From positions 91,464 through 155,463 of the IMG/VR virus record IMGVR_UViG_3300020577_009322: a stretch of 64,000 nt of DNA. One strand, written 5' to 3'. Shown one piece after another: positions 7,200-64,000 of the stretch. Position 1 is the stretch's first letter, and each line of letters begins with the position of its first letter. The notes below the pieces were generated by a model. That model searched no databases and was not told where the DNA came from. It was given only the letters and a program-made list of their open reading frames with translations. Origin of the DNA: a virus (lineage: Duplodnaviria; Caudoviricetes). Made by a program: the position numbers and the translations under genes.

Positions 7200-8171
7200 A
7201 TGCCTTGTAATACAACACCTTGTGATGATAAATGTTTACCTTATAATCCATGTTATGATGATTGTGGTTGTTTAAACCCAACTACTTTTGAGTGTGTAAC
7301 AAAACCTGGAACATGGCCTGCATTAGGAATTACTAATGATATGAATGGGGTAGAGGCTTTAGAAGCCTTAAATACCGTTATTAATAATTTAACTATAACC
7401 CCGCCATCTCCTGGATCAGACGTTTATGTTAAAGCTACATCTGCAGATACAACTGCAAACTACCTTTCTAGTAAGTTAGTAGTTGGAGCATTTTTAACAA
7501 AAACAATAGTAAATCCGTCAGGAAATGAACAAATTCGTCTGAATGTTTCACCTGCAGCCTTGGTTTCTTCTGATTCTGGAAATATTCTAGATATAGGAAC
7601 TGATGGAAAATTACGTGCTATAGTTACTGTTCCTTTACCTGATATTTCAGTAGTTGGAGGAAGTGGTGTAACTGTTACAGGAACAGGTCCATCATCAGAT
7701 CCTTTTGTTGTATCAATAAATCCATCAATAGAAGTAGTAAGAAATTGCTTTGATAATGTATGGAGAGATGTTACATTAGTTGCTACAGGAAATGCTAATG
7801 TTGTTTATGTTAGTGGAATTCCAAAATATCGTTATCGTTTTGATGGAACAATAGAATTTAAAGGATCAGCAACTTATACTGTAGCTTTTGGAGCATATTC
7901 TACAGGAAATAGAAAATATACAATAACAATTGGGAATATTCCAACAACATGTGTAACATCAGGTGAGCAAGCGGGAGTATCTGACCTGAAGAATATCAAT
8001 TATATAGATGTACCACAAGCTGGTGCAGATCAAATAACGCAACAATATGGGTATATTATTAGAAAATCAACAGCCAATCTAATAGTAGAATTTCAGTCTT
8101 CTTTTACCTCATCAACAAGTAAAACAATTGTTGTTAACTTCGAGGGAGCTATATCATACCCATCTCTTTAA
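7200..8171 (+). CDS. Fibre-like structural protein with Cys-rich N-terminus
   Basis: 323 aa; MPCNTTPCDDKC start; VTGTGxxxDP and SSDSGNILDIGTDGKL fibre-type repeats. Confidence 0.55.
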   Translation: MPCNTTPCDDKCLPYNPCYDDCGCLNPTTFECVTKPGTWPALGITNDMNGVEALEALNTVINNLTITPPSPGSDVYVKATSADTTANYLSSKLVVGAFLTKTIVNPSGNEQIRLNVSPAALVSSDSGNILDIGTDGKLRAIVTVPLPDISVVGGSGVTVTGTGPSSDPFVVSINPSIEVVRNCFDNVWRDVTLVATGNANVVYVSGIPKYRYRFDGTIEFKGSATYTVAFGAYSTGNRKYTITIGNIPTTCVTSGEQAGVSDLKNINYIDVPQAGADQITQQYGYIIRKSTANLIVEFQSSFTSSTSKTIVVNFEGAISYPSL

Positions 8172-8207
8172 AAACTCGTGGTTAGTTGGTTCTCCACAAA
8201 ATGAGTT

Positions 8208-8234
8208 AACGATCCGTTTCTACGGGTCGTTTTT
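8208..8234 (+). terminator. Intrinsic terminator ending the structural operon
   Basis: aacgatccgt-ttct-acgggtcgtt plus T-run. Confidence 0.8.
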
Positions 8235-8247
8235 ACTTTAAAATAAA

Positions 8248-8279
8248 TTTGGTAAATTAAAAATAAAATCGTATATTTG
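8248..8279 (+). promoter_or_regulatory. Bacteroidota-type sigma70 promoter (tRNA block 1)
   Basis: TTTG 8248-8251 and TATATTTG 8272-8279. Confidence 0.8.
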
Positions 8280-8283
8280 CACT

Positions 8284-8361
8284 ATGAAAGCAGTAGAAAA
8301 ATTGTATGGCTGCGGTTGTGGTAAACCAAAACCAGTAGTGGTTAAACCACCTTCAAGATAA
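8284..8361 (+). CDS. 25-aa micro-protein MKAVEKLYGCGCGKPKPVVVKPPSR
   Basis: ATG 4 nt after the -7 element; GCGCGK motif; below ORF-track cutoff. Confidence 0.55.
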   Translation: MKAVEKLYGCGCGKPKPVVVKPPSR

Positions 8362-8372
8362 AAATAAAAACT

Positions 8373-8459
8373 ATGATAACAGTAAATCATGCATGGCCCA
8401 TCTTTACGCAATGTCCAACAGGACAATGTGAGGGACTGTGTACGTGTATTAAGAATTAA
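8373..8459 (+). promoter_or_regulatory. Attenuator leader peptide L1 MITVNHAWPIFTQCPTGQCEGLCTCIKN
   Basis: His/Trp/Pro/Phe/Thr/Gln/Cys codons match downstream tRNAs; followed by terminator. Confidence 0.8.
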
Positions 8460-8479
8460 CTCTTAACCACAACCGAACT

Positions 8480-8507
8480 AACCCCTCCATAAAAAGAGGG
8501 GTTTTTT
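8480..8507 (+). terminator. Attenuator terminator T1
   Basis: aacccctc-cataaaaa-gaggggtt plus T-run, just before tRNA-Pro. Confidence 0.85.
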
Positions 8508-8512
8508 ATTAT

Positions 8513-8587
8513 CTAGATGTTCCACAGTTGGTTATATGGGCTTGCCCTGGAAGCAAGTGTTCGTCAGTTCGAATCTGACCATCTAGA
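8513..8587 (+). tRNA. tRNA-Pro(TGG)
   Basis: ctagatg/catctag acceptor; cttgc-CCTGGAA-gcaag; TTCGAAT T-loop. Confidence 0.85.
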
Positions 8588-8590
8588 CAT

Positions 8591-8662
8591 GCTTTCTTAA
8601 TAGTAATGGTAGCTACTCTGTTTTGTAATCAGAAAGTGTCAGTTCGAGTCTGACAGAAAGCT
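8591..8662 (+). tRNA. tRNA-Thr(TGT)
   Basis: gctttct/agaaagc acceptor; tctgt-TTTGTAA-tcaga. Confidence 0.85.
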
Positions 8663-8670
8663 CTTAACTT

Positions 8671-8742
8671 GGTCCTTTGGGTGAGTGGTTTAACTATTAG
8701 TCTGCAAAACTAATTACAGCAGTTCGAATCTGCTAGGGACCT
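8671..8742 (+). tRNA. tRNA-Cys(GCA)
   Basis: ttagt-CTGCAAA-actaa; U73. Confidence 0.9.
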
Positions 8743-8811
8743 CAAAGGCTTGTCCTTGAAACAACCTTCCCGTGGAGGGAACTGTAAGACAGTTTAAATA
8801 AGAGGATAGCT

Positions 8812-8883
8812 GGAAATATAACTCAGTTGGTAGAGTGCCAGATTGAAGATCTGGTTGCATCAGTTCGATTCTGATTATTTCCA
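8812..8883 (+). tRNA. tRNA-Phe(GAA)
   Basis: ccaga-TTGAAGA-tctgg; canonical cloverleaf. Confidence 0.92.
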
Positions 8884-8888
8884 CATAT

Positions 8889-8960
8889 ACGTGTGTAGTG
8901 TAGTTGGTAACACAGCAGTCTCCAAAACTGTATTCACCTGTTCGAATCGGGTCATACGTG
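8889..8960 (+). tRNA. tRNA-Trp(CCA)
   Basis: gcagt-CTCCAAA-actgt; G73. Confidence 0.9.
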
Positions 8961-8965
8961 CTTAT

Positions 8966-9036
8966 TTTCTTGTAGTGTAATGGTAACACATGAGATTTTG
9001 GCTCTCATATTTTAGGTTCGAGTCCTAACAAGAAAA
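8966..9036 (+). tRNA. tRNA-Gln(TTG)
   Basis: tgaga-TTTTGGC-tctca. Confidence 0.9.
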
Positions 9037-9038
9037 CT

Positions 9039-9111
9039 GGTGATTATAGCATAATGGTAGTGCAAAAGTTTGTGAAGCTTACAGGTGGGAGTTCGAATCT
9101 CCTTAGTCACC
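9039..9111 (+). tRNA. tRNA-His(GTG)
   Basis: G-1:C73; loop TTGTGAA. Confidence 0.88.
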
Positions 9112-9118
9112 CTTATAA

Positions 9119-9194
9119 ACTCCGTTAGCTAAACTGGATACGGCACCAGAATACGAATCTGGAGATTTTGAGGGTTCGAATCCTTCACGGAGTA
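9119..9194 (+). tRNA. tRNA-Arg(ACG)
   Basis: ccaga-ATACGAA-tctgg. Confidence 0.88.
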
Positions 9195-9247
9195 CAATTT
9201 TAAATAATAATTTTCCTAAAATAAAATATATACTATATCTTTGTTCT

Positions 9248-9433
9248 ATGATAGGAAAAATAATAAAATCAGATATGAAATCTAGGATCAGTTATAATAT
9301 AACTGGTTTAGATAAGGGAATATTATTTGTTAATAAAAATACATCATCATTATCTCCAGATGGATATGAAGGAAAATGTCCACAAGGGGAACTATTTAAC
9401 AATAATGGAAATAGTTGGAGATCGAGTTGTTGA
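9248..9433 (+). CDS. Small hypothetical protein
   Basis: 61 aa; TATCTTTG at 9236-9243 just upstream. Confidence 0.35.
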   Translation: MIGKIIKSDMKSRISYNITGLDKGILFVNKNTSSLSPDGYEGKCPQGELFNNNGNSWRSSC

Positions 9434-9489
9434 TAGAGGGAGACTTTCTATAGAAGTAGATGAGAATGGATATGTTACTATAAAATAAA

Positions 9490-9521
9490 TTTGGTAATTG
9501 TTAAAAATAGTTGTATATTTG
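9490..9521 (+). promoter_or_regulatory. Bacteroidota-type promoter (upstream of tRNA block 2)
   Basis: TTTG 9490-9493 and TATATTTG 9514-9521. Confidence 0.8.
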
Positions 9522-9564
9522 TGCTGCACTGACCAAGTAGGCGTGTTACTAAAAATATACAAAC

Positions 9565-9870
9565 ATGAAGAGTACAATTAGAGTGGACTTTCAGGGTCCG
9601 GAGACATCGTCTCAAAATGGTTTTGAACCAGTTATTAGAGTAAATTTAGTAGAAAGTGATGACACACGAGATAAGTTACTAAAGACATTCTTTCAGTCAT
9701 TAGGTGGAGAAAGTTCCTGGCTACATGTAAAACATGTAAAAATTGATCAATCGTGTCATTCTGGATTAATTAATGATAGTATAGTAATTACTCCAGTAAA
9801 AGAGGCTGATATTGAGAACTTGAAGAAAGAGATAGAAGATAGAATAAATGATAAGAGAAATATTTTTTAA
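9565..9870 (+). CDS. Hypothetical protein
   Basis: 101 aa ORF after promoter. Confidence 0.65.
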   Translation: MKSTIRVDFQGPETSSQNGFEPVIRVNLVESDDTRDKLLKTFFQSLGGESSWLHVKHVKIDQSCHSGLINDSIVITPVKEADIENLKKEIEDRINDKRNIF

Positions 9871-9887
9871 ACCTTAAATATAATAAT

Positions 9888-9998
9888 ATGATAATAGGAT
9901 TAATTATTAGTGGAGTAGTGGGTTTCATAGTTGGAGCCTTGGTATTTAGAAATAATGCTAAAAAGGGAGAAGAAATTATTGATAATCTTAAAAAGTAA
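9888..9998 (+). CDS. 36-aa single-pass membrane protein MIIGLIISGVVGFIVGALVFRNNAKKGEEIIDNLKK
   Basis: Hydrophobic helix plus charged tail; A-rich upstream region. Confidence 0.65.
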   Translation: MIIGLIISGVVGFIVGALVFRNNAKKGEEIIDNLKK

Positions 9999-10010
9999 TA
10001 AAGACAACTA

Positions 10011-10079
10011 ATGCAACAATTTTATATGATAGTTAGAAATATTTTAGGGGCGGATGAAAAATCTGGCTCTAGGGAATAA
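10011..10079 (+). promoter_or_regulatory. Attenuator leader peptide L2 MQQFYMIVRNILGADEKSGSRE
   Basis: Codons 6-17 cover all 10 amino acids of block-2 tRNAs; gctctaggg complementary to terminator 5' arm. Confidence 0.85.
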
Positions 10080-10104
10080 TTTTACTATCTTATAATAGAA
10101 AGTT

Positions 10105-10141
10105 AACCCTGGAGCATATTAAGCTTCAGGGTTTTTCTTTT
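10105..10141 (+). terminator. Attenuator terminator T2
   Basis: aaccctggagc-atattaa-gcttcagggtt plus T-run. Confidence 0.88.
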
Positions 10142-10146
10142 AAAAT

Positions 10147-10221
10147 ACCTTCGTAGCAAAATGTGGCTTTGCTCCTGACTTTTAATCAGAACAAAAATGG
10201 GTTCGACTTCCTTCGAAGGTA
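10147..10221 (+). tRNA. tRNA-Lys(TTT), atypical
   Basis: accttcg/cgaaggt acceptor; loop CTTTTAA; mismatches in anticodon and T stems. Confidence 0.75.
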
Positions 10222-10224
10222 CTT

Positions 10225-10299
10225 GGGATCTTAGCAAAAATGATATTTCTTCAGCCTCTTAAGCTGAATAAAAGTAGAGTTCGATTCTCACAGATCCCA
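10225..10299 (+). tRNA. tRNA-Lys(CTT), atypical
   Basis: gggatct/agatccc; tcagc-CTCTTAA-gctga; weak D-arm lacking GG. Confidence 0.7.
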
Positions 10300-10309
10300 C
10301 ATAAGTATA

Positions 10310-10341
10310 TTTGGTGGTTCGAAAATTATTTCGTATATTTG
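10310..10341 (+). promoter_or_regulatory. Bacteroidota-type promoter of the HNH gene
   Basis: TTTG 10310-10313 and TATATTTG 10334-10341; ATG at 10346. Confidence 0.8.
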
Positions 10342-10345
10342 ATAT

Positions 10346-10876
10346 ATGAAAGAAAGAATAGAACAATTAAGAAAAGAAGGAAAAAGTTATAGTGAAATAT
10401 CAAAGATAACTGGATTAGTCAAATCTACAATATCATACTATGTAGGAAATAGAACTGGAAAAGGTAAGCTAACAGCTGAAAAAAGAAATTGTAGAAATTG
10501 TGAAAAAGAAATCAGTTCTCCAAAAGTTTTCTGTGATAAAAAATGTGATTTTGAATATAAACAGAAACTTAGGTTAGATAAATTTGAAAAAAGCAATTTG
10601 TGTACAAATAATTCTATTAGAAAAGCACTTATTTCTATAAATGGAAATAAATGCAGTATTTGTGAAATCTCTGAAATATGGAATGATAGGAAATTAACTA
10701 TGCATGTAGATCATATTGATGGAAATTCTGATAATAATGATAATAAAAATGTTAGATTAGTATGTCCTAATTGTCATTCTCAACTAGAAACATCTAAAAA
10801 TAAAGTTAAAAAACAAACAAAAAGAAATAAATACTTAAGAAAATACAAAGGTTATATAGATGCCCCTGTCGTATAG
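10346..10876 (+). CDS. Free-standing HNH homing endonuclease with N-terminal HTH and Zn-finger
   Basis: CxxC pairs; HVDHIDGNSDNNDNKNVRLVCPNCHS. Confidence 0.9.
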   Translation: MKERIEQLRKEGKSYSEISKITGLVKSTISYYVGNRTGKGKLTAEKRNCRNCEKEISSPKVFCDKKCDFEYKQKLRLDKFEKSNLCTNNSIRKALISINGNKCSICEISEIWNDRKLTMHVDHIDGNSDNNDNKNVRLVCPNCHSQLETSKNKVKKQTKRNKYLRKYKGYIDAPVV

Positions 10877-10934
10877 TGATTTAATATCTCTCTCTTACAA
10901 AGAGAAGACGGCAGTTTGATTCTGCACAGGGGTA
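10862..10934 (+). tRNA. tRNA-Val(TAC)
   Basis: tctct-CTTACAA-agaga; T-loop TTTGATT. Confidence 0.8.
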
Positions 10935-10939
10935 CAAAT

Positions 10940-11011
10940 GGTTCTATAGTGTAATGATTAGCACAACTCTCTTCTAAAGAGTTAGTATAAGTTTGACCCT
11001 TGTTAGGACTA
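10940..11011 (+). tRNA. tRNA-Arg(TCT)
   Basis: actct-CTTCTAA-agagt. Confidence 0.8.
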
Positions 11012-11051
11012 CAGATGAGTTACCCTTCTCCGTGTATTAAAAAGGGATAAT

Positions 11052-11126
11052 GTCTGAATAGCTGAGTTGGTTTCAAGCACTTGACTGTTAATCAAGAGTA
11101 GTTGGGTTCGATCCCCAAATCAGACG
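11052..11126 (+). tRNA. tRNA-Asn(GTT)
   Basis: cttga-CTGTTAA-tcaag; G73. Confidence 0.9.
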
Positions 11127-11132
11127 CTTTAT

Positions 11133-11203
11133 TGTGCGGTGGTGTAATGGTAGCATATTGGGCTCATAACCCAATGATGAAAGTTCGACTCTTTCCTGCG
11201 CAA
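11133..11203 (+). tRNA. tRNA-Met(CAT), initiator-like
   Basis: ttggg-CTCATAA-cccaa with three consecutive G-C pairs. Confidence 0.85.
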
Positions 11204-11206
11204 CTT

Positions 11207-11422
11207 ATGAAAAATTACATAGAAGATCAAATTAGAAAAGGTTACAGGGTATACGACCTTAAAGAAATACTCGGAGAAACACCAATGCAATCAGATATAG
11301 ATAATTTGATTGAAAAATTAGGTCCTAATAAGTTAGGTGAAGTTGATGAAAATGGTTATCTTTACGTGAAAACAGATCAATCGTGGAGAAATATTTTAGG
11401 ACAGCGGATGGAGAAATGGTGA
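11207..11422 (+). CDS. Hypothetical protein (71 aa)
   Basis: Start reassigned to ATG 11207 because the track's 11102 start lies inside tRNA genes. Confidence 0.55.
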   Translation: MKNYIEDQIRKGYRVYDLKEILGETPMQSDIDNLIEKLGPNKLGEVDENGYLYVKTDQSWRNILGQRMEKW

Positions 11423-11856
11423 ATATAATCTCTCACTGTAGAGAAATATTAGCAAAAGAACCAGATGCTAAGATATTAATTGGAACTGACTCACAGGATG
11501 AGGATGGAAAAAGTAAGTATTGTACTGTAATAGTATTTAGATATGGATTACGTGGTGCTCACTTTATCTACAGTAAGGATGATAGGAAAAAGATAAGAGA
11601 TATTTTCACTCGTTTATTTACTGAGTGTGAGTACTCACTAGAAATTGCTGAGCATATAACTAAGAATACTAGTTATAAAGTATCAACAATAGAGTTAGAT
11701 TTCAATGATTTCAAGAAGACAAAATCAACACCTTTAATATCAGCAACAAAGGGATGGTGTGAATCTTTAGGTTACTCAGCTACTCTAAAAAGTGGTGAAA
11801 TGTTTGCTTGTAAAGCAGCAGATCATATCCTAAGACATCCATCATTATATAAATAA
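11383..11856 (+). CDS. RNase H-like YkuK/DUF458 family protein
   Basis: ILIGTDSQ...IELDFN...KAADH acidic motif layout. Confidence 0.8.
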   Translation: MEKYFRTADGEMVNIISHCREILAKEPDAKILIGTDSQDEDGKSKYCTVIVFRYGLRGAHFIYSKDDRKKIRDIFTRLFTECEYSLEIAEHITKNTSYKVSTIELDFNDFKKTKSTPLISATKGWCESLGYSATLKSGEMFACKAADHILRHPSLYK

Positions 11857-11884
11857 TACTTTCAAACAAAAATAAATTTAGTAA

Positions 11885-11958
11885 GCAGTATACGCATAAA
11901 TGGTGGTGCACCAGTCTTCCAAATTGGAATAGAGTCAGTTCGATCCTGACATGCTGCA
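11885..11958 (+). tRNA. tRNA-Gly(TCC)
   Basis: ccagt-CTTCCAA-attgg. Confidence 0.85.
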
Positions 11959-12020
11959 CCCTTAAGAGAGATTAAATAAAGTCTGCAGCTTTTGGCCAAT
12001 ATTGGTTCTCTCTTTTGCAG

Positions 12021-12092
12021 GGCCCTTTCGTCTAATGTGTAGGACGACGCTCTTTCCAAGCGTAGATTTCGGTTCGAATCCGTGAGGGGCTA
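12021..12092 (+). tRNA. tRNA-Glu(TTC)
   Basis: Glu-type D arm gtct...ggac; acgct-CTTTCCA-agcgt. Confidence 0.78.
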
Positions 12093-12098
12093 CAATAA

Positions 12099-12172
12099 GG
12101 TCTATGGATGTGGCAGGGTGTGGCTACTGGATTGTCAATCCAGGGAGACGGGTTCGATCCCCGTATAGACCG
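12099..12172 (+). tRNA. tRNA-Asp(GTC)
   Basis: ctgga-TTGTCAA-tccag; G73; atypical D arm. Confidence 0.8.
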
Positions 12173-12229
12173 CAACGAGGAACATGGTAATTCATGTCTG
12201 AGGCTGAAAGAAGCAATCCCCTCGTCTAT

Positions 12230-12302
12230 GCTTCTATAGCTCAATGGTCAGAGCAGGACGCTTATATCGTCAAGGTTTCCAGTTCGAGTCTGGATAGAAG
12301 TA
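12230..12302 (+). tRNA. tRNA-Ile(TAT)
   Basis: Loop CTTATAT; canonical D and T arms. Confidence 0.85.
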
Positions 12303-12307
12303 CATAT

Positions 12308-12380
12308 TGGAGTGTAGCTCAAATGGTAGAGCGCCTGCCTGATACGCAGGAGGTACAGGGATCGTTACCCTGCATTCCAA
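12308..12380 (+). tRNA. tRNA-Ile(GAT)
   Basis: cctgc-CTGATAC-gcagg; T-loop ATCGTTA atypical. Confidence 0.85.
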
Positions 12381-12507
12381 CGGAGTGTTACGCATAGCCT
12401 CTCAACGATGTAGCGTTTCTCCTCGGTAGCCCGTCGACGTAATCCGAGACAGTTCATTACCTAATAAGAATGAGTTAGGGAGATATGGGAAACCTGCTCC
12501 CGATTTT

Positions 12508-12580
12508 GGGGATAAAGCTCTAGTGGATGAGCATCTGCCTTGCACGCAGAAGGTTAGGAATTCGAGTTTCCTTATCTCCA
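12508..12580 (+). tRNA. tRNA-Ala(TGC)
   Basis: G3:U70 pair; tctgc-CTTGCAC-gcaga. Confidence 0.92.
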
Positions 12581-12588
12581 CAAATAAA

Positions 12589-12620
12589 TTTGGTAAATAT
12601 AAATATTTGTAGTATTATAT
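12589..12620 (+). promoter_or_regulatory. Possible promoter for tRNA block 3
   Basis: aaataaaTTTGgtaaat matches the 8241-8257 context, but the -7 element is degenerate (tattatat). Confidence 0.45.
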
Positions 12621-12626
12621 AATATA

Positions 12627-12698
12627 ATGAAGAAACTATATACATATTATTCGTTAAGTCTCTTGTCCTTAAATGGACTAGCTAGGAATACTATGTGA
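12627..12698 (+). promoter_or_regulatory. Attenuator leader peptide L3 MKKLYTYYSLSLLSLNGLARNTM
   Basis: 11 of codons 4-15 are Leu/Ser/Tyr; downstream tRNAs are Leu, Leu, Ser, Ser, Tyr. Confidence 0.88.
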
Positions 12699-12729
12699 TA
12701 ACAGTGGGCAATCGTTAGATCATTCGTGT

Positions 12730-12760
12730 AAATCCTGGCTTTAATTAGTCAGGATTTTTT
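12730..12760 (+). terminator. Attenuator terminator T3
   Basis: aaatcctggct-ttaatt-agtcaggattt plus T-run, 4 nt before tRNA-Leu. Confidence 0.88.
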
Positions 12761-12764
12761 ATTT

Positions 12765-12838
12765 GTGGGTATGGCGGAATTGGAATACGCAACAGGTTTA
12801 GACCCTGAAATTTAAGAGTTCGAGTCTCTTTACCCATA
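12765..12838 (+). tRNA. tRNA-Leu(TAG), short variable arm
   Basis: Leu-type D loop gaattggaata; loop TTTAGAC; A73. Confidence 0.85.
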
Positions 12839-12844
12839 CTATAT

Positions 12845-12918
12845 GTCCTTGTGATGGAATTGGAATACATGTCAGACTTAAAATCTGAATTTTACGGGTT
12901 CGAGTCCCGTCTTGGACA
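12845..12918 (+). tRNA. tRNA-Leu(TAA), short variable arm
   Basis: tcaga-CTTAAAA-tctga; two T-T mismatches in acceptor stem. Confidence 0.8.
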
Positions 12919-12923
12919 CATAA

Positions 12924-13006
12924 GGAAGAGCGCATTGTGAGAGCTTATCCGTCCTGAAAACGGTGAAGGTGTAATAGCTGTGAGAGTTCGATTCTCTCCT
13001 CTTCCG
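12924..13006 (+). tRNA. tRNA-Ser(TGA)
   Basis: Loop CCTGAAA; long variable arm; G73; degenerate D arm. Confidence 0.75.
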
Positions 13007-13011
13007 CTTAT

Positions 13012-13094
13012 AGAGAAATGACAGAGTGGTAATGTAGCAGTTTGCTAAACTGTAGATGGTAACACATCCGTGAGTTCGATCCTCACTTTCTCTG
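13012..13094 (+). tRNA. tRNA-Ser(GCT)
   Basis: gcagt-TTGCTAA-actgt; long variable arm; G73. Confidence 0.9.
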
Positions 13095-13099
13095 CAGAT

Positions 13100-13183
13100 G
13101 GGTATGATGGTAAATGTGGTTAAATCAGGAGACTGTAAATCTCTCGTCATTAGACTGTTGGAGTTCGATTCTGTACATACCCA
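13100..13183 (+). tRNA. tRNA-Tyr(GTA)
   Basis: ggaga-CTGTAAA-tctct; long variable arm. Confidence 0.85.
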
Positions 13184-13200
13184 CAATTATTTTTTTATTT

Positions 13201-13243
13201 AAATGGAGTCTTGTACCTTTGTTGGGCTAAGACTCCATTTTTT
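13201..13243 (+). terminator. Terminator closing the tRNA cluster
   Basis: aaatggagtctt...aagactccattt plus T-run. Confidence 0.75.
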
Positions 13244-13359
13244 GTTCAGGCAGGAGGATACACTATGAAAATAGTGCTACTACGTCTAAGGATGCTTATG
13301 TCCCCTAAGTAGATTGGGAGGGGGCTGGGGGGTGGGTCAGAAAATAAATTAAAAATAAA

Positions 13360-13391
13360 TTTCGCTATATCAAATATTCATTGTAACTTTG
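13360..13391 (+). promoter_or_regulatory. Bacteroidota-type promoter
   Basis: TAACTTTG 13384-13391, with tttcg 24 nt upstream. Confidence 0.6.
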
Positions 13392-13411
13392 TGGAAACAA
13401 AACAGAAAAAT

Positions 13412-13573
13412 ATGACAAAGAAAATTACAGAACACTTGAAAAGAAACAACAGTTATTTTAAATGGTCAGCTAAAAGATTAGCAGATAAGTTTGGTTGTTC
13501 AGAAAGAACTATCACAAATATTATCAAGACTCTTGCACCAGTTAAGAGAACTTATTTAAATAACTTAAAGTAA
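13412..13573 (+). CDS. Small HTH DNA-binding protein
   Basis: SAKRLADKFGCSERTITNII helix-turn-helix; ATG 13412 preferred over GTG 13391. Confidence 0.7.
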   Translation: MTKKITEHLKRNNSYFKWSAKRLADKFGCSERTITNIIKTLAPVKRTYLNNLK

Positions 13574-13577
13574 GAGA

Positions 13578-14414
13578 ATGTTTAAGAAGGAAATAGAAGC
13601 TTTTTTACTAGAAAAAAGAGGATACTTGAAGAAGTCACCTTTACATGTGGCTAAAGCTATATGGAAATCTTCAATAAAACACAGTAAACCAAAGACTCAA
13701 GCAGATGTAGAGAAAGAATTAGAGGTAATCAAGGATGTTCAGGCCACAATGAGACTAGTAACTGTCCATCCACAGGATTCTGCAGATAACAGTATTTTGG
13801 AAGCTTACGAAAAGATAGTAGCTGAGAAAAATCGTCCAAGAAAAAAGTTATTCTTTGATCTAGAAGTATCAGCTAATATCGTATTCTCTTGGAGAATTGG
13901 TAAGGATGTAGATCTATCACCAGATAGTATTATTCAGGAACGAGCTATTATATGTGCTTGTTATAAGTGGGAAGGAGATGATAGAGTTTATTCTCTAAAG
14001 TGGAATAAAGGTGATGATAAAGATTTATTAGAAAAATTCTCAAAAATTATAGATTCAGCAGATGAGGTAGTTACCCAAAATGGGGATGCATTTGATATTA
14101 AGTGGTTAAGAACACGCTGTATCTATCATGGAATTCCAGTATCACCAAAGTTCAATTCAATTGATACTTTAAAAATGGCCAGAAGTGGGTTTAAATTTAA
14201 CTCCAATAAATTAGATTATATGGGAAAGTTTCTGTCACTTGGACAGAAAATAAAGACAGAATATAATTTATGGAAGGATATTACCTTAAATAACAGTAAG
14301 GTGGCTATGGATAAGATGGTTGAGTATTGCAAACAAGATGTTACACTGTTAGAACAGGTATATCAAAAATTACAGGCTTTCTCACCAGTTAAGAAGTTCA
14401 AATACAAACTGTAA
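13578..14414 (+). CDS. DnaQ/RNase H-like 3'-5' exonuclease
   Basis: Exo I FFDLE, Exo II QNGDAFD, Exo III YCKQD. Confidence 0.88.
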   Translation: MFKKEIEAFLLEKRGYLKKSPLHVAKAIWKSSIKHSKPKTQADVEKELEVIKDVQATMRLVTVHPQDSADNSILEAYEKIVAEKNRPRKKLFFDLEVSANIVFSWRIGKDVDLSPDSIIQERAIICACYKWEGDDRVYSLKWNKGDDKDLLEKFSKIIDSADEVVTQNGDAFDIKWLRTRCIYHGIPVSPKFNSIDTLKMARSGFKFNSNKLDYMGKFLSLGQKIKTEYNLWKDITLNNSKVAMDKMVEYCKQDVTLLEQVYQKLQAFSPVKKFKYKL

Positions 14415-33200: not shown

Positions 33201-34213
33201 ATGTTAAAAAGACTGAAGAACCTATTCAAGTTTCTAACACTTTATCAGAAAATACAAAAGTAGAAAGTAAACCTAAATATAATATTGATAATGTTAATGC
33301 ATTAATATTAGCTATTATACAAAAAAACTTTCAGAAGATTTCTGATTTAAAATCAGAGATAGCAAAAATTCCAAAAGATTTAGTAGAAGAAAGAGTTAAT
33401 TTACTTATCTCAAGAGTTGCTACATATAAGAAACCAGAGAATGCTAATAAAATAAAAGAAGAATTTAGAAGGATTTTTGGTGAAGATTTCTTACAGAATT
33501 CTCCTACTCCAAAAGTAGAGGAAAAACCAGCGGTTAAACAACCATCTACTAATCCTTTAGATAAGATTAAGATAACCTTAACTCCACAAGAAGATAAGAG
33601 AGCTGATATAGAAAGAAGAAGACAAGAAGAACTAAATCAAAAAACTGATGCAGGGTATTCAATTATTGCATTGGACTATTTATTTACAGGAGGTAGAGAT
33701 GTAATACAATCTACTGATTATTTATTACAGGCTTTAGTTGGAGGATTTACAAGTGCAGCTAAAGAAATAAATGATATTAGAAATAAATATGCTGATAAGT
33801 TAGGTAATATTAAAGATGATATTAACTCTGATGTTTATAATCAAATGATGTTAGAAATTAGGGATGTTATAAATAAAAATTATAATGACCCTAAAGCAAA
33901 TGAAATTTTTGATAAAATATTAAAAAATGCAACAGGATTTACAACTAGAGAAGGAAATCAAACAAGTATTGAATTAGATAAATTAAATGAACAAAATGAT
34001 TCTAAAATCAATGCTAAATATTATGCAGAATTAGCTGCTTTAGGAGCTACTACAACCACTTCAATTAAACCCGGAGTAGAAGAATTATTCGATGAAAACC
34101 CTGAATTAGCTAATGCTGTATATTCAAAAATATTAACTAATTCTGGACTTTCTTCTGAAAATTTATTATCTTTGCTATTGAAAGATAACTTAATAGAAAA
34201 ACAATGTCCATAA
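30278..34213 (+). CDS. Giant cargo/RNAP polyprotein fragment 1 (Gly/Ala-rich membrane-inserting N-terminal region)
   Basis: SASSLGFTIGTIAAAV, EGTEESYQ; ends ...LLLKDNLIEKQCP*. Confidence 0.7.
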   Translation: MPDLINPTFDTKIDQPDIPVVVDTQWNRPTVQIPDSLKQSQALFQEPGDVSLMDFTNKVNNHLTPDQVKRNNEDANIMASLTPKITTPSKEVPFRYFSSIDAMRYKQNSRLWNTQGYNPEVPSDITDAIYDFHETKWESIKNILPKLWSTTAFSFKNYFAEYADTARAISQLDANLLHDSQRFEDYQNDQNELEALNPDYKTDKEVKWWQLGRGDYWEQSASSLGFTIGTIAAAVTENVGITLATGGLGEFGELYNSPRKIYKAISDYYSLKRAYSLVKGALGAKSLVGRLGNAANIWRLTNGALSEAAFEGATIAYDYLQSYKQNYIDKYGRNPSEEEMKGAKMAANSMANATILFETPFLMASNAVQFGNLIAPKTIGKLAKLGEKGAFKLGTELIDGLPKTIVQSTENQAKNIFTKYGEKGLHAIKNATWEGTEESYQALVTTSTQKYYGDKYKNGDDGDIMKALGAGYDYITSNQGLIEFSAGFATGEIFHLAGVPLHIFAKPSVRTAEEQATYKKANPDATDIDAKYKTNVLNNVFGYGMDKINKEREKANLEEIAKKLNSVDLEKFLKEEGFLSLVKDKQTQFALAKYLQNNDQFNMQNAQNLQLNRYLYAGLTTGKIDLQIDKLKQFASQDFHTLSEFFGLDENDYSTQEDKDKFINGFRAWTAELGNKTKEFERIFNQQKDSFSSIISAAAKEHDKNLSIKNSFLTDLQRKYSEDNIENLSKKISSDEITQLNDMNVATVASHFRFYAVNEAVKASVFSQVGMDDAANRAKDIVRQLVKNDSTHTFYHELGSFFDIGYRENRLKDLQSKVDLAKSSNDENLSLYEQQLNSFKSMTKKLDGQFNRASNYNIDSVANSILDYLHNTQRELNNLDNSTSLEDRIANQEVGQYSLLKEFVKLQKSHQENLNLYNYLSSQANREDYTRFQSRKLTDFFSKAVELTDNEEKDKQVKEAVDNNGVQEAEVVKSYVKKTEEPIQVSNTLSENTKVESKPKYNIDNVNALILAIIQKNFQKISDLKSEIAKIPKDLVEERVNLLISRVATYKKPENANKIKEEFRRIFGEDFLQNSPTPKVEEKPAVKQPSTNPLDKIKITLTPQEDKRADIERRRQEELNQKTDAGYSIIALDYLFTGGRDVIQSTDYLLQALVGGFTSAAKEINDIRNKYADKLGNIKDDINSDVYNQMMLEIRDVINKNYNDPKANEIFDKILKNATGFTTREGNQTSIELDKLNEQNDSKINAKYYAELAALGATTTTSIKPGVEELFDENPELANAVYSKILTNSGLSSENLLSLLLKDNLIEKQCP
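34003..34043 (+). repeat. 41-bp direct repeat, copy 1 (KINAKYxAELAAL)
   Basis: taaaatcaatgctaaatattatgcagaattagctgctttag; 39/41 identical to 38948-38988. Confidence 0.9.
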
Positions 34214-62893: not shown

Positions 62894-62897
62894 TAAC

Positions 62898-64000
62898 ATG
62901 GCAGCAATAGAAACGGGTTCATCACAAGCAGGTGTAGCCAATGTGGATAGTAATTATAATTTACAAGTAAATTTACCAACAACAGGATCTCAGGCAGGTT
63001 TTGCTAGACAGACCTATGTTCCAGCAACGGGAATAAATAAAGATATGCAGATAACTGAAGATGGTGCTGGCATGGTAGCTGCTATTGTTCCTATTTGGGA
63101 AATATCTTTTAATGGAACAGGTTCTACAACATGGGCACCTAAATTAGGAACTGTTGCTACAACTATGACCAAAGCTGTTACAAACGGTTTTATGCAGTTG
63201 AACTCTGGTTCTTCTGTTACAACTACACAAGGTATAGCAATCTATAGTAACTTAGTATTTAACTTATTTCAAAATAATGAGTTACGTATTAAAATGAATA
63301 TTAAGCCAAATAACCAAGCTGGTACTAATAAACAGATGGAATGGGGAATGGGCTATTATAACTTTGCTTCTGGACAAGCCAATGCCATGAATGAGTTTAT
63401 TGGATTCAGAGTTACTGCAGGTGGTGTATTACATGGTGTATTAGCATATTCTACTGGTGGTGCTCCAACTGAAACTAACGTAAATATCAATGGTGGTACC
63501 CCTTTTACAGATAATCAATCAAAAGAGTATGAATTAAGAATTTCAAATAGAAAAGTAGAGTATTGGGCAGCTGGTATTTATCAGAACAAAATAGATATTG
63601 CTACTGATGTATATGGATTATTAAAGGCTATTGCATATCCATTTATAGCCAGAGTATTTAACTCTGGCACGGCTTCAGCAGCACCTATATTATATGTTGG
63701 TTCTGTTCAAGTATCAAGAGTAGGTGATGATGGTATTATTGATTTACCTACTTCTAAATCCAGGATGGATAAAGCAAGCCATTATTTTCAACCAGATTTA
63801 CTTACAGGTGCTGGTACTAACCCATTCAACTTTCCAGCTTCTGGTTCTGCTCCTACAGCAGCCACAGGTTCAAATACTGCTTCTGTATTAAATAATGCTG
63901 CCCAATTAGGTGGCTTTTATTCGATGAATGCTGCTTCATTTTTAACAACAAACAACTCAAATATACTTGTTTCTGCATACTTAAATCCAGCAATTCCTCA
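62898..64000 (+). CDS. Tail-associated protein, 3'-truncated
   Basis: ATG 62898 (MAAIETGSSQAGVANVD...); frame appears open to window end; lectin-like beta-rich content. Confidence 0.6.
   Translation, partial: MAAIETGSSQAGVANVDSNYNLQVNLPTTGSQAGFARQTYVPATGINKDMQITEDGAGMVAAIVPIWEISFNGTGSTTWAPKLGTVATTMTKAVTNGFMQLNSGSSVTTTQGIAIYSNLVFNLFQNNELRIKMNIKPNNQAGTNKQMEWGMGYYNFASGQANAMNEFIGFRVTAGGVLHGVLAYSTGGAPTETNVNINGGTPFTDNQSKEYELRISNRKVEYWAAGIYQNKIDIATDVYGLLKAIAYPFIARVFNSGTASAAPILYVGSVQVSRVGDDGIIDLPTSKSRMDKASHYFQPDLLTGAGTNPFNFPASGSAPTAATGSNTASVLNNAAQLGGFYSMNAASFLTTNNSNILVSAYLNPAIP

Follow-up and report, generated by a model that had tools for sequence, protein, structure and literature searches.

Leader-peptide attenuators of enterobacteria, such as those of ilvGMEDA (Leu, Val and Ile), thr (Thr and Ile), trp, his, leu and pheA, combine a translated leader open reading frame (ORF) that carries regulatory codons with an intrinsic terminator and a mutually exclusive antiterminator overlapping the 5' arm of that terminator. 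In pheST of Escherichia coli, a leader-peptide attenuator acts on a gene of the translation apparatus and forms a feedback loop on decoding capacity. In this study, we analyzed a 64,000-nucleotide (nt) stretch of phage DNA (hereafter, the window), positions 91,464 to 155,463 of the IMG/VR virus record IMGVR_UViG_3300020577_009322, in which three blocks of transfer RNA (tRNA) genes are each preceded by a short leader ORF and an intrinsic terminator. Our analysis suggests that these are three ribosome-mediated (leader-peptide) transcription attenuators, one per phage tRNA block, that would place the tRNA supply under negative feedback. Judged on the sequences, we consider the probability of this reading to be roughly 0.8.

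The control of phage tRNA gene expression is essentially undescribed. Our full-text literature search returned no account of how phage tRNA transcription is regulated, and no account of leader-peptide control of tRNA genes, in phages or otherwise. Phage tRNAs have been viewed as compensating for codon usage or as a counter-defence against tRNA-cleaving immunity, e.g., PARIS AriB (in the portions of PMC12409363 drawn on here). As for leader peptides in other bacteria, the portions of bioRxiv 10.1101/834739 that we used describe polycysteine leaderless short ORFs of mycobacteria as cysteine-responsive attenuators, and strong clues for leader-peptide attenuation have been found upstream of amino-acid biosynthesis operons of Flavobacterium psychrophilum (PMC9723704).

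Organization of the tRNA blocks and their leaders

ARAGORN called 24 tRNA genes between positions 8513 and 13184 of the window, all on the plus strand, and Rfam confirmed 23 of these. The 20 amino acids are split among the three blocks (Table 1) and Arg alone occurs twice, which agrees with the initial annotation of this DNA. That annotation had counted 25 tRNAs. The 25th is not among the called genes and was identified through relatives: the 92-nt gap at 12920-13011 aligns to their tRNA-Ser(TGA) and holds a homologue at 12924-13006, with C for U at position 33 and an odd D-arm, that was missed by ARAGORN and Rfam.

Each leader ORF has a central run of codons that recalls the content of the tRNA block behind it. 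The run of leader 2 (10026-10061) comprises Met, Ile(ATA), Val, Arg(AGA), Asn, Ile(ATT), Gly, Ala, Asp, Glu and Lys codons, and that of leader 3 samples the CTN, TTR, TCN, AGY and TAY boxes. Terminator stems start 107, 94 and 103 nt past the ATGs of units 1, 2 and 3, respectively, and 17-31 nt past the leader stop codons, and the T-runs end 4-5 nt ahead of tRNA-Pro (8513), tRNA-Lys (10147) and tRNA-Leu (12765). The coordinates and distances first annotated for leaders, terminators and tRNAs were confirmed, with the exception of the start of leader 2, which had been placed at the ATG at 10026 and which relatives place at 10011.

Promoter-like sites head the units. The site of unit 3 contains a sigma-70-like match (12590-12618), and a stricter scan for Bacteroidota-type promoters did not flag it. 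In relatives, sites of the Bacteroidota sigma-A type lie 5-32 nt upstream of the leader ATGs. The Bacteroidota -7 box has its consensus at -12 to -5 (PMC9723704), and in several units this box ends 4 nt short of the leader ATG; the transcripts of some units would therefore be leaderless, because only four nt remain between box and ATG.

Table 1. Features of the tRNA array and its leader regions, in window coordinates.
Feature	Coordinates	Strand	Basis or remark
Bacteroidota sigma-A-type promoter-like site heading unit 1	8246..8279	+	both elements, family's fixed spacing
Small conserved ORF (25 codons) with Gly-Cys-Gly-Cys-Gly motif	8284..8361	+	between promoter and leader 1
Leader ORF 1 (28 codons)	8373..8459	+	run 8388-8429: His, Trp, Pro, Phe, Thr, Gln, Cys codons
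Antiterminator strand, unit 1	8429..8435	+	RNAduplex -8.5 kcal/mol, weakest of the three
Intrinsic terminator 1	8480..8507	+	stem 8480-8503 and T-run, -12.5 kcal/mol
tRNA block 1: Pro, Thr, Cys, Phe, Trp, Gln, His, Arg(ACG)	8513..9195	+	ARAGORN, Rfam
Promoter-like site of the unit with two small ORFs and leader 2	9488..9521	+	small ORFs 9565-9870 and 9888-9998
Leader ORF 2 (22 codons)	10011..10079	+	internal ATG at 10026; start backed by relatives
Antiterminator strand, unit 2	10065..10087	+	duplex -19.5 kcal/mol, z = -5.0
Intrinsic terminator 2	10097..10141	+	core stem 10105-10133 (extendable 10097-10138) and T-run, -19.3 kcal/mol
tRNA block 2: Lys x2, Val, Arg(TCT), Asn, Met, Gly, Glu, Asp, Ile(TAT), Ile(GAT), Ala	10147..12581	+	
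Internal promoter-like site, block 2	10308..10341	+	before HNH endonuclease ORF 10346-10876
Promoter-like site heading unit 3	12583..12618	+	copy of conserved upstream motif
Leader ORF 3 (23 codons)	12627..12698	+	run 12636-12671, Leu/Ser/Tyr in 11/12 codons
Antiterminator strand, unit 3	12679..12688	+	duplex -12.3 kcal/mol, z = -3.2
Intrinsic terminator 3	12730..12760	+	stem 12730-12757 and T-run, -13.9 kcal/mol
tRNA block 3: Leu(TAG), Leu(TAA), probable Ser(TGA) homologue, Ser(GCT), Tyr(GTA)	12765..13184	+	
Strong hairpin and T-run closing the tRNA array	13203..13244	+	direct sequence reading

In the mechanism that we propose, host RNA polymerase would start at the Bacteroidota-type promoter and transcribe the short ORF, whose central run is made up of codons that the downstream tRNAs read. 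The strand that follows the run, still within the ORF, would be able to pair with the 5' arm of the terminator ending a few nt before the first tRNA. If a ribosome is slow anywhere in the run, this strand would be left free to pair with the emerging arm, no terminator would form, and the polymerase would enter the tRNA genes. If the run is decoded fast, the ribosome would cover the strand, the terminator would form and transcription would stop. We infer that the leaders are translated and that their translation is coupled to transcription, and the direction of the response and its biological purpose are proposed on the same footing. The operon's own products read the codons that are sensed, which would make the circuit a negative-feedback homeostat for the phage tRNA supply; it would respond also to host tRNA depletion or amino-acid starvation. 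The output of tRNAs is thus probably adjusted to the speed at which ribosomes decode the codons of the block. An OR gate over the individual codons was proposed in the initial annotation; since each codon occurs only once or twice, a sensor of summed decoding speed is just as likely.

Co-variation of leader codons with tRNA content

Related arrays were collected from IMG/VR and metagenomes, using as anchors a neighbouring 323-residue protein and a 145-residue RNase H-like protein of the array. This gave a non-redundant set of 52 leader-terminator-tRNA units from 29 loci (numbered with the prefix L below). A search anchored on the exonuclease returned 80 loci, with any tRNA call in 4 of the 80 and an array in L017 alone, which is from the same record as L004. 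The leaders are kept as ORFs in the 52 units, and homologues of leader 1 were present in 12 other loci. Across the three window units and 21 units from the first ten loci, stop codon and terminator are 17-41 nt apart, and the T-run ends 2-7 nt short of the first tRNA unless an HNH gene is inserted. Of the 41 tRNA-abutting terminators in the metagenome loci, 35 have an ATG-initiated ORF of 12-60 codons ending 10-50 nt upstream, compared to 22% of random positions. The order of residues in the runs varies widely among relatives and their composition is kept; this indicates selection on codon content and not on peptide sequence.

The strongest evidence that leader codons are matched to tRNAs comes from their co-variation across these loci. 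L101 and L102 have a different block order, with tRNA-Cys placed in the Lys/Val/Arg block. The leader 2 runs of these two loci have gained a Cys codon and their leader 1 runs are without Cys codons, whereas leader 1 of all other loci has four or five Cys codons in its run. When all units of the leader 1 and leader 2 types are cross-tabulated by Cys codons in the run and by tRNA-Cys among the genes of the block, the two-by-two count is 13/0/0/14. L014 is without an Arg tRNA in blocks 1 and 2, and without an Arg codon in either run. Upstream of Arg(ACG), seven leader 1 units use CGY as the Arg codon of the run, and upstream of Arg(TCT) alone it is AGA in 14 of 14 cases; genome-wide, CGY makes up ~19% of Arg codons. 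Hence, the expectation that leader codons in relatives would co-vary with tRNA gain, loss and shuffling is borne out for Cys and Arg, the codons of which follow the position or the absence of their tRNAs. During this comparison, we noted that the Thr, His and Trp tRNAs of L014 block 1 are divergent or insertion-bearing; they went uncalled and were identified by eye.

Loci with a single tRNA or none, and loci with all tRNAs in one block, extend this picture. In L005 and L006, tRNA-Cys stands alone behind a leader 1 homologue with five Cys codons and without His, Trp or Phe. L015, a relative at 63% identity, has no tRNAs and none of the three leaders, yet it has kept the neighbouring Gly-Cys-rich small ORF. 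In a distant clade, in which the protein embedded in the array is about 30-33% identical, 16-24 tRNAs form a single block that is preceded by a single leader of 40-53 codons. Upstream of the antiterminator strand, all 20 amino acids are present within 31-45 codons of that leader, and within 31-32 codons in three different leaders of the clade. In the phages' own proteins, all 20 amino acids occur with a frequency of 1.6e-4 in 32 residues and 5e-3 in 45 residues.

Codon match compared with chance

Nearly all run codons in the window are readable by a tRNA of their own block; ATA and ATT, for example, have the two Ile tRNAs, and AGA has Arg(TCT). When the amino acids were partitioned at random into blocks of the same sizes, the observed score was reached in fewer than 1 of 10,000 trials per genome (p < 1e-4), a result in line with the original claim that the leader codons index the tRNA genes behind them. 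A stricter background was made up of every 160-nt genome window, on both strands and in three frames. Against it, the coverage of 7 of 8 amino acids in block 1 had p = 0.024, the coverage of 10 of 10 in block 2 had p = 0.003, and the run of 9 in block 3 had p = 0.004. A plain run-length statistic was not significant for block 2 against the genome background (p = 0.4-0.56). This is because the amino acids of that block are common in this AT-rich genome (32% G+C). Run length was replaced by the coverage of distinct amino acids, and the statistic was fixed before further relatives were fetched. All 30 units from the loci fetched afterwards pass it, with a median background fraction of 0.003, and in 13 of the 13 genomes that have two or three units, no other assignment scores as well as that of every leader to its own block; the genomes are related, and p-values pooled over them overstate independence. 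The run codons are also enriched for rare synonymous codons ending in G or C (0.295 versus 0.196 expected, p < 3e-4). Rare synonymous regulatory codons are likewise found in the leu leader, and in the present runs they would slow decoding and sharpen a sensor of speed.

The proposed antiterminator switch

In every unit, a strand within the ORF and directly after the run is complementary to the 5' arm of the terminator. The strands annotated at first in the window were recovered, at 52-56 nt past the ATG. The mean antiterminator duplex is -13.8 kcal/mol (z = -3.4 versus shuffles). In leader 1 and leader 3 units the strand lies 0-9 nt past the run; the max-segment definition over-extends block 2 runs, and the run-to-strand gaps of leader 2 units are not meaningful. 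The strand of unit 1 is formed by Glu-Gly codons of leader 1 that are conserved in relatives.

Two comparisons among relatives point to a maintained pairing. In an alignment of seven leader 2 units (A4), both sides change in 6 of 12 antiterminator pairs and in 5 of 16 terminator pairs. In a test that does not depend on alignment, the terminator arm was paired better by its own leader than by other leaders of the same type, with rank-sum z values of -3.2, -4.2, -3.7 and -3.0 for the four types.

The position of the ribosome was modelled by folding transcripts cut before the 3' arm of the terminator, with a ribosome footprint of 28 nt masked. With the A site in the run, the 5' arm of the terminator stays paired upstream in silico, with a mean probability of 0.74, and this pairing falls in 50 of the 52 units once the ribosome moves past the run, a result that is partly circular in that the strand had been chosen for pairing best with the arm. 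The informative part is the position of the strand, which is always within the ORF between the run and the stop codon. In equilibrium folds with a stalled ribosome, the terminator is lost in most leader 2 units, including window unit 2. Without a ribosome, the antiterminator has a probability of 0.13 in window unit 1, 0.88 in unit 2 and 0.75 in unit 3. The initial reading of these loci as leader-peptide attenuators with codons that index the downstream tRNAs is therefore supported by four things shown by the sequences and their comparison: the geometry of the units, the codon-tRNA matching, the co-variation and the alternative pairing.

Points of caution and alternative explanations

Besides the relatedness of the genomes and the partial circularity of the footprint folding, several observations weigh against attenuation of the kind proposed here. 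First, the match of codons and tRNAs is imperfect. Leader 1 of the window and of L003 has no Arg codon despite Arg(ACG) in the block. Pro, Gln and Thr codons are retained in L005 and L006, where the matching tRNAs are missing, and L011 has lost its Val, Arg and Asn tRNAs but not the codons for them. The region 13891-13981 of L011 is without the Val, Arg(TCT) and Asn tRNAs kept by its near-twin L012 at 13939-14361, and the leader 2 ORFs of the two are identical; the loss looks like a recent deletion that the leader has yet to follow. The C-terminal part of leader 1 is, moreover, conserved at the amino-acid level across distant relatives. As each regulatory codon occurs once or twice, the sensitivity to a single tRNA species may be low.

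Second, the folding is not uniformly that of a clean switch. In equilibrium folds with a stalled ribosome, the terminator is still dominant in window units 1 and 3. Because the terminator persists at equilibrium in these two units, kinetic trapping must be assumed for them. Over the 52 units, the antiterminator forms without a ribosome with a mean probability of 0.62. Since it does so in many units, an anti-antiterminator of the trp type is not general, and the default state may be read-through that is shut off by fast translation.

Third, there are routes around the attenuators. The space between terminator and first tRNA in the window is too short for a promoter, and the concern that a constitutive promoter might lie there is answered to that extent; inside block 2, however, the promoter-like site listed in Table 1 could transcribe Val through Ala and bypass attenuator 2. 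In L003 and L012, HNH genes with their own promoters lie between the attenuator terminator and the first tRNA, and insertions at this junction would uncouple the tRNAs from the attenuator. Finally, outside the window, a strong hairpin with a T-run ends no more than ~10 nt ahead of each of two tRNA-like genes, an 89-nt "Leu-GAG" and a 72-nt "Ser-TGA", and neither has a codon-matched leader. The juxtaposition of terminators and tRNAs in this phage is wider than the attenuators. These genes are among three more tRNA or tRNA-like genes of the record, which lie on the minus strand at record positions 34043-34131, 62894-62968 and 66038-66109. A search for Arg-rich leaders ahead of these three genes and of the isolated tRNA-Arg(TCT) of L014 turned up no clear ORF, or just a terminator behind an ordinary gene.

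Three other explanations were considered, and none of them explains the co-variation. One is that the short ORFs encode small functional proteins (e.g., a Cys-rich peptide from leader 1) followed by ordinary terminators with constitutive, leaky read-through into the tRNAs, the codon match being a coincidence or a bias of composition. The amino-acid conservation in the C-terminal half of leader 1, the unmatched Pro, Gln and Thr codons of L005 and L006, and the terminators that precede tRNAs elsewhere in the genome without matched leaders would all suit such proteins. We nevertheless regard them as improbable, given that the composition of the runs is conserved and the order of residues is not, that Cys and Arg codons track the tRNAs as blocks change, and that the tRNA-less relative lacks the leaders yet keeps the neighbouring small ORF. 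Pfam gave no family match, and the Glu-Gly codons conserved in leader 1 are the very ones that make up the antiterminator strand.

We attach an equally small likelihood to translation being coupled with the opposite or some other logic, for instance by shielding the transcript from Rho or nucleases, or to the terminated leader RNA being a functional small RNA, with read-through into the tRNAs incidental. Such a role fits the formation of the antiterminator without ribosomes in many units, where the default may be read-through, and small RNAs derived from attenuators are known in other bacteria (as described in the portions of PMC6614838 used here). It leaves unexplained why the codons track the downstream tRNAs; in addition, 17 nt or more separate the stop codon from the terminator, a distance from which a terminating ribosome cannot melt the hairpin directly. 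Least likely of all is a translation-independent, T-box-like switch in which leader triplets bind tRNA anticodons directly and set the choice between terminator and antiterminator: the triplets do match downstream anticodons and the terminator/antiterminator pair is present, but in 52 units the matching triplets all share a single frame, that of an ATG-to-stop ORF, conserved structures of the specifier-loop or acceptor-binding kind were not seen, 8-20 tandem specifiers are without precedent, and an Rfam search of 7500-14000 with E-values up to 0.1 returned only tRNAs and two weak matches to plastid untranslated regions, and no T-box or other cis-regulatory family.

Genome context and other observations

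The window is the final 64 kb of a 155,463-bp record that has direct terminal repeats. A megablast search of the region against 50,697 phage records gave matches of tRNA size only; there is no close cultured relative among them. The DNA polymerase exonuclease gene adjoining the array has its nearest matches in Flavobacterium siphoviruses (48% identity), and a PHROGs search of the phage proteins gave generic structural matches only. The promoters are of the Bacteroidota type, and we treat the phage as one with a Bacteroidota-type host. The initial annotation had looked to Crassvirales for relatives; the PHROGs scan and the exonuclease, with crAss markers not searched directly, gave nothing that would place the phage in that order.

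In block 2, protein ORFs lie among the tRNA genes, and no terminator was predicted within the block (10147..12581). One of these ORFs (11419-11856) encodes the 145-residue RNase H-like protein (Pfam PF04308, E = 6e-19) that served as an anchor. Homologues were found in 71 metagenome loci, in most of which tRNA genes flank them, and the protein may act in tRNA processing or tRNA repair and be carried along with the tRNA arrays of phages. Genes for HNH homing endonucleases, which have promoters of their own, are found repeatedly within the arrays, at 10346-10876 in the window, ~11455-11925 in L003 and 16909-17340 in L012; that of the window ends inside tRNA-Val.

The small ORF between the promoter and leader 1 is context and not the sensor, and a Pfam search with it (8284..8361) found no family. 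ORFs with the extended motif Gly-Cys-Gly-Cys-Gly-Lys-Pro were observed in the tRNA-less L015 (11070-11135), in L126 (1103-1213), where the ORF is fused to the C-terminus of leader 2, and after tRNA-Cys in L005 and L006. The conserved unit may be an RNA element rather than a peptide. At 12912-13095 of L007, a promoter, a 14-codon ORF and a strong terminator are followed by a protein-coding ORF instead of a tRNA, and this may be an attenuator of another kind. Some relatives have a tRNA with anticodon CTA, designated "Pyl" by ARAGORN (L099 2103, L103 12020, L105 5439 and L162 13348). It is possible that these are amber suppressors, a hint of TAG reassignment in part of the phage group.

Significance and comparison with known systems

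If our reading is true, the elements described here would be the first attenuators known to regulate tRNA genes, and would constitute a multi-input sensor of decoding capacity. A textbook mechanism would thereby be extended to a new class of target, in Bacteroidota, where attenuation has barely been studied. The codon content of each leader predicts which tRNA shortage opens which block, so that the hypothesis is directly testable, and co-variation of the sort seen here usually precedes experimental confirmation. Being compact and programmable, the modules could further be put to use in reporting on tRNA availability.

As to purpose, a role in sensing host tRNA-cleaving defence is a plausible conjecture. 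Studies of phage tRNA function offer a reason for carrying a full tRNA set; in the portions consulted, they describe the roles of the tRNAs and not the control of their transcription. More tentatively, large phages might generally possess a self-contained tRNA homeostat with translated inventory leaders of up to 20 amino acids, which would gauge how fast each codon family supplied by the phage is decoded and would open the tRNA operon if any one of the tRNAs runs short. Such a homeostat might have been selected chiefly to sense and counter host immunity that cleaves or depletes tRNAs, an idea that we consider less likely than not.

The units share with the enterobacterial attenuators both a leader ORF bearing regulatory codons, which would be translated, and the intrinsic terminator with its overlapping, mutually exclusive antiterminator. 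They differ in that tRNA genes are regulated and not biosynthetic enzymes, and in that the element is phage-borne. Up to 10 amino acids (20 in the related clade) are sampled once or twice, in place of codon repeats. The first regulated gene lies only 4-5 nt past the terminator, and an anti-antiterminator is not a general feature. The attenuator of pheST, by comparison, governs a protein enzyme for one amino acid and not the tRNAs themselves. T-box riboswitches also sense tRNA supply and set the choice between terminator and antiterminator upstream of translation-related genes, but T-boxes have a conserved structure and bind uncharged tRNA directly, with no need of translation, whereas the sensor here would be an ORF. 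The mycobacterial polycysteine ORFs are similarly short and Cys-rich, and some units here may share their leaderless transcripts; the Cys-only units of L005 and L006 come closest to them. As far as the portions of that report used here extend, the mycobacterial ORFs govern bacterial operons of cysteine metabolism and not a phage tRNA-Cys gene. Overall, the anatomy of the units is that of a known attenuator; what is new is the tRNA genes as its target and a leader that reads like an inventory of them.

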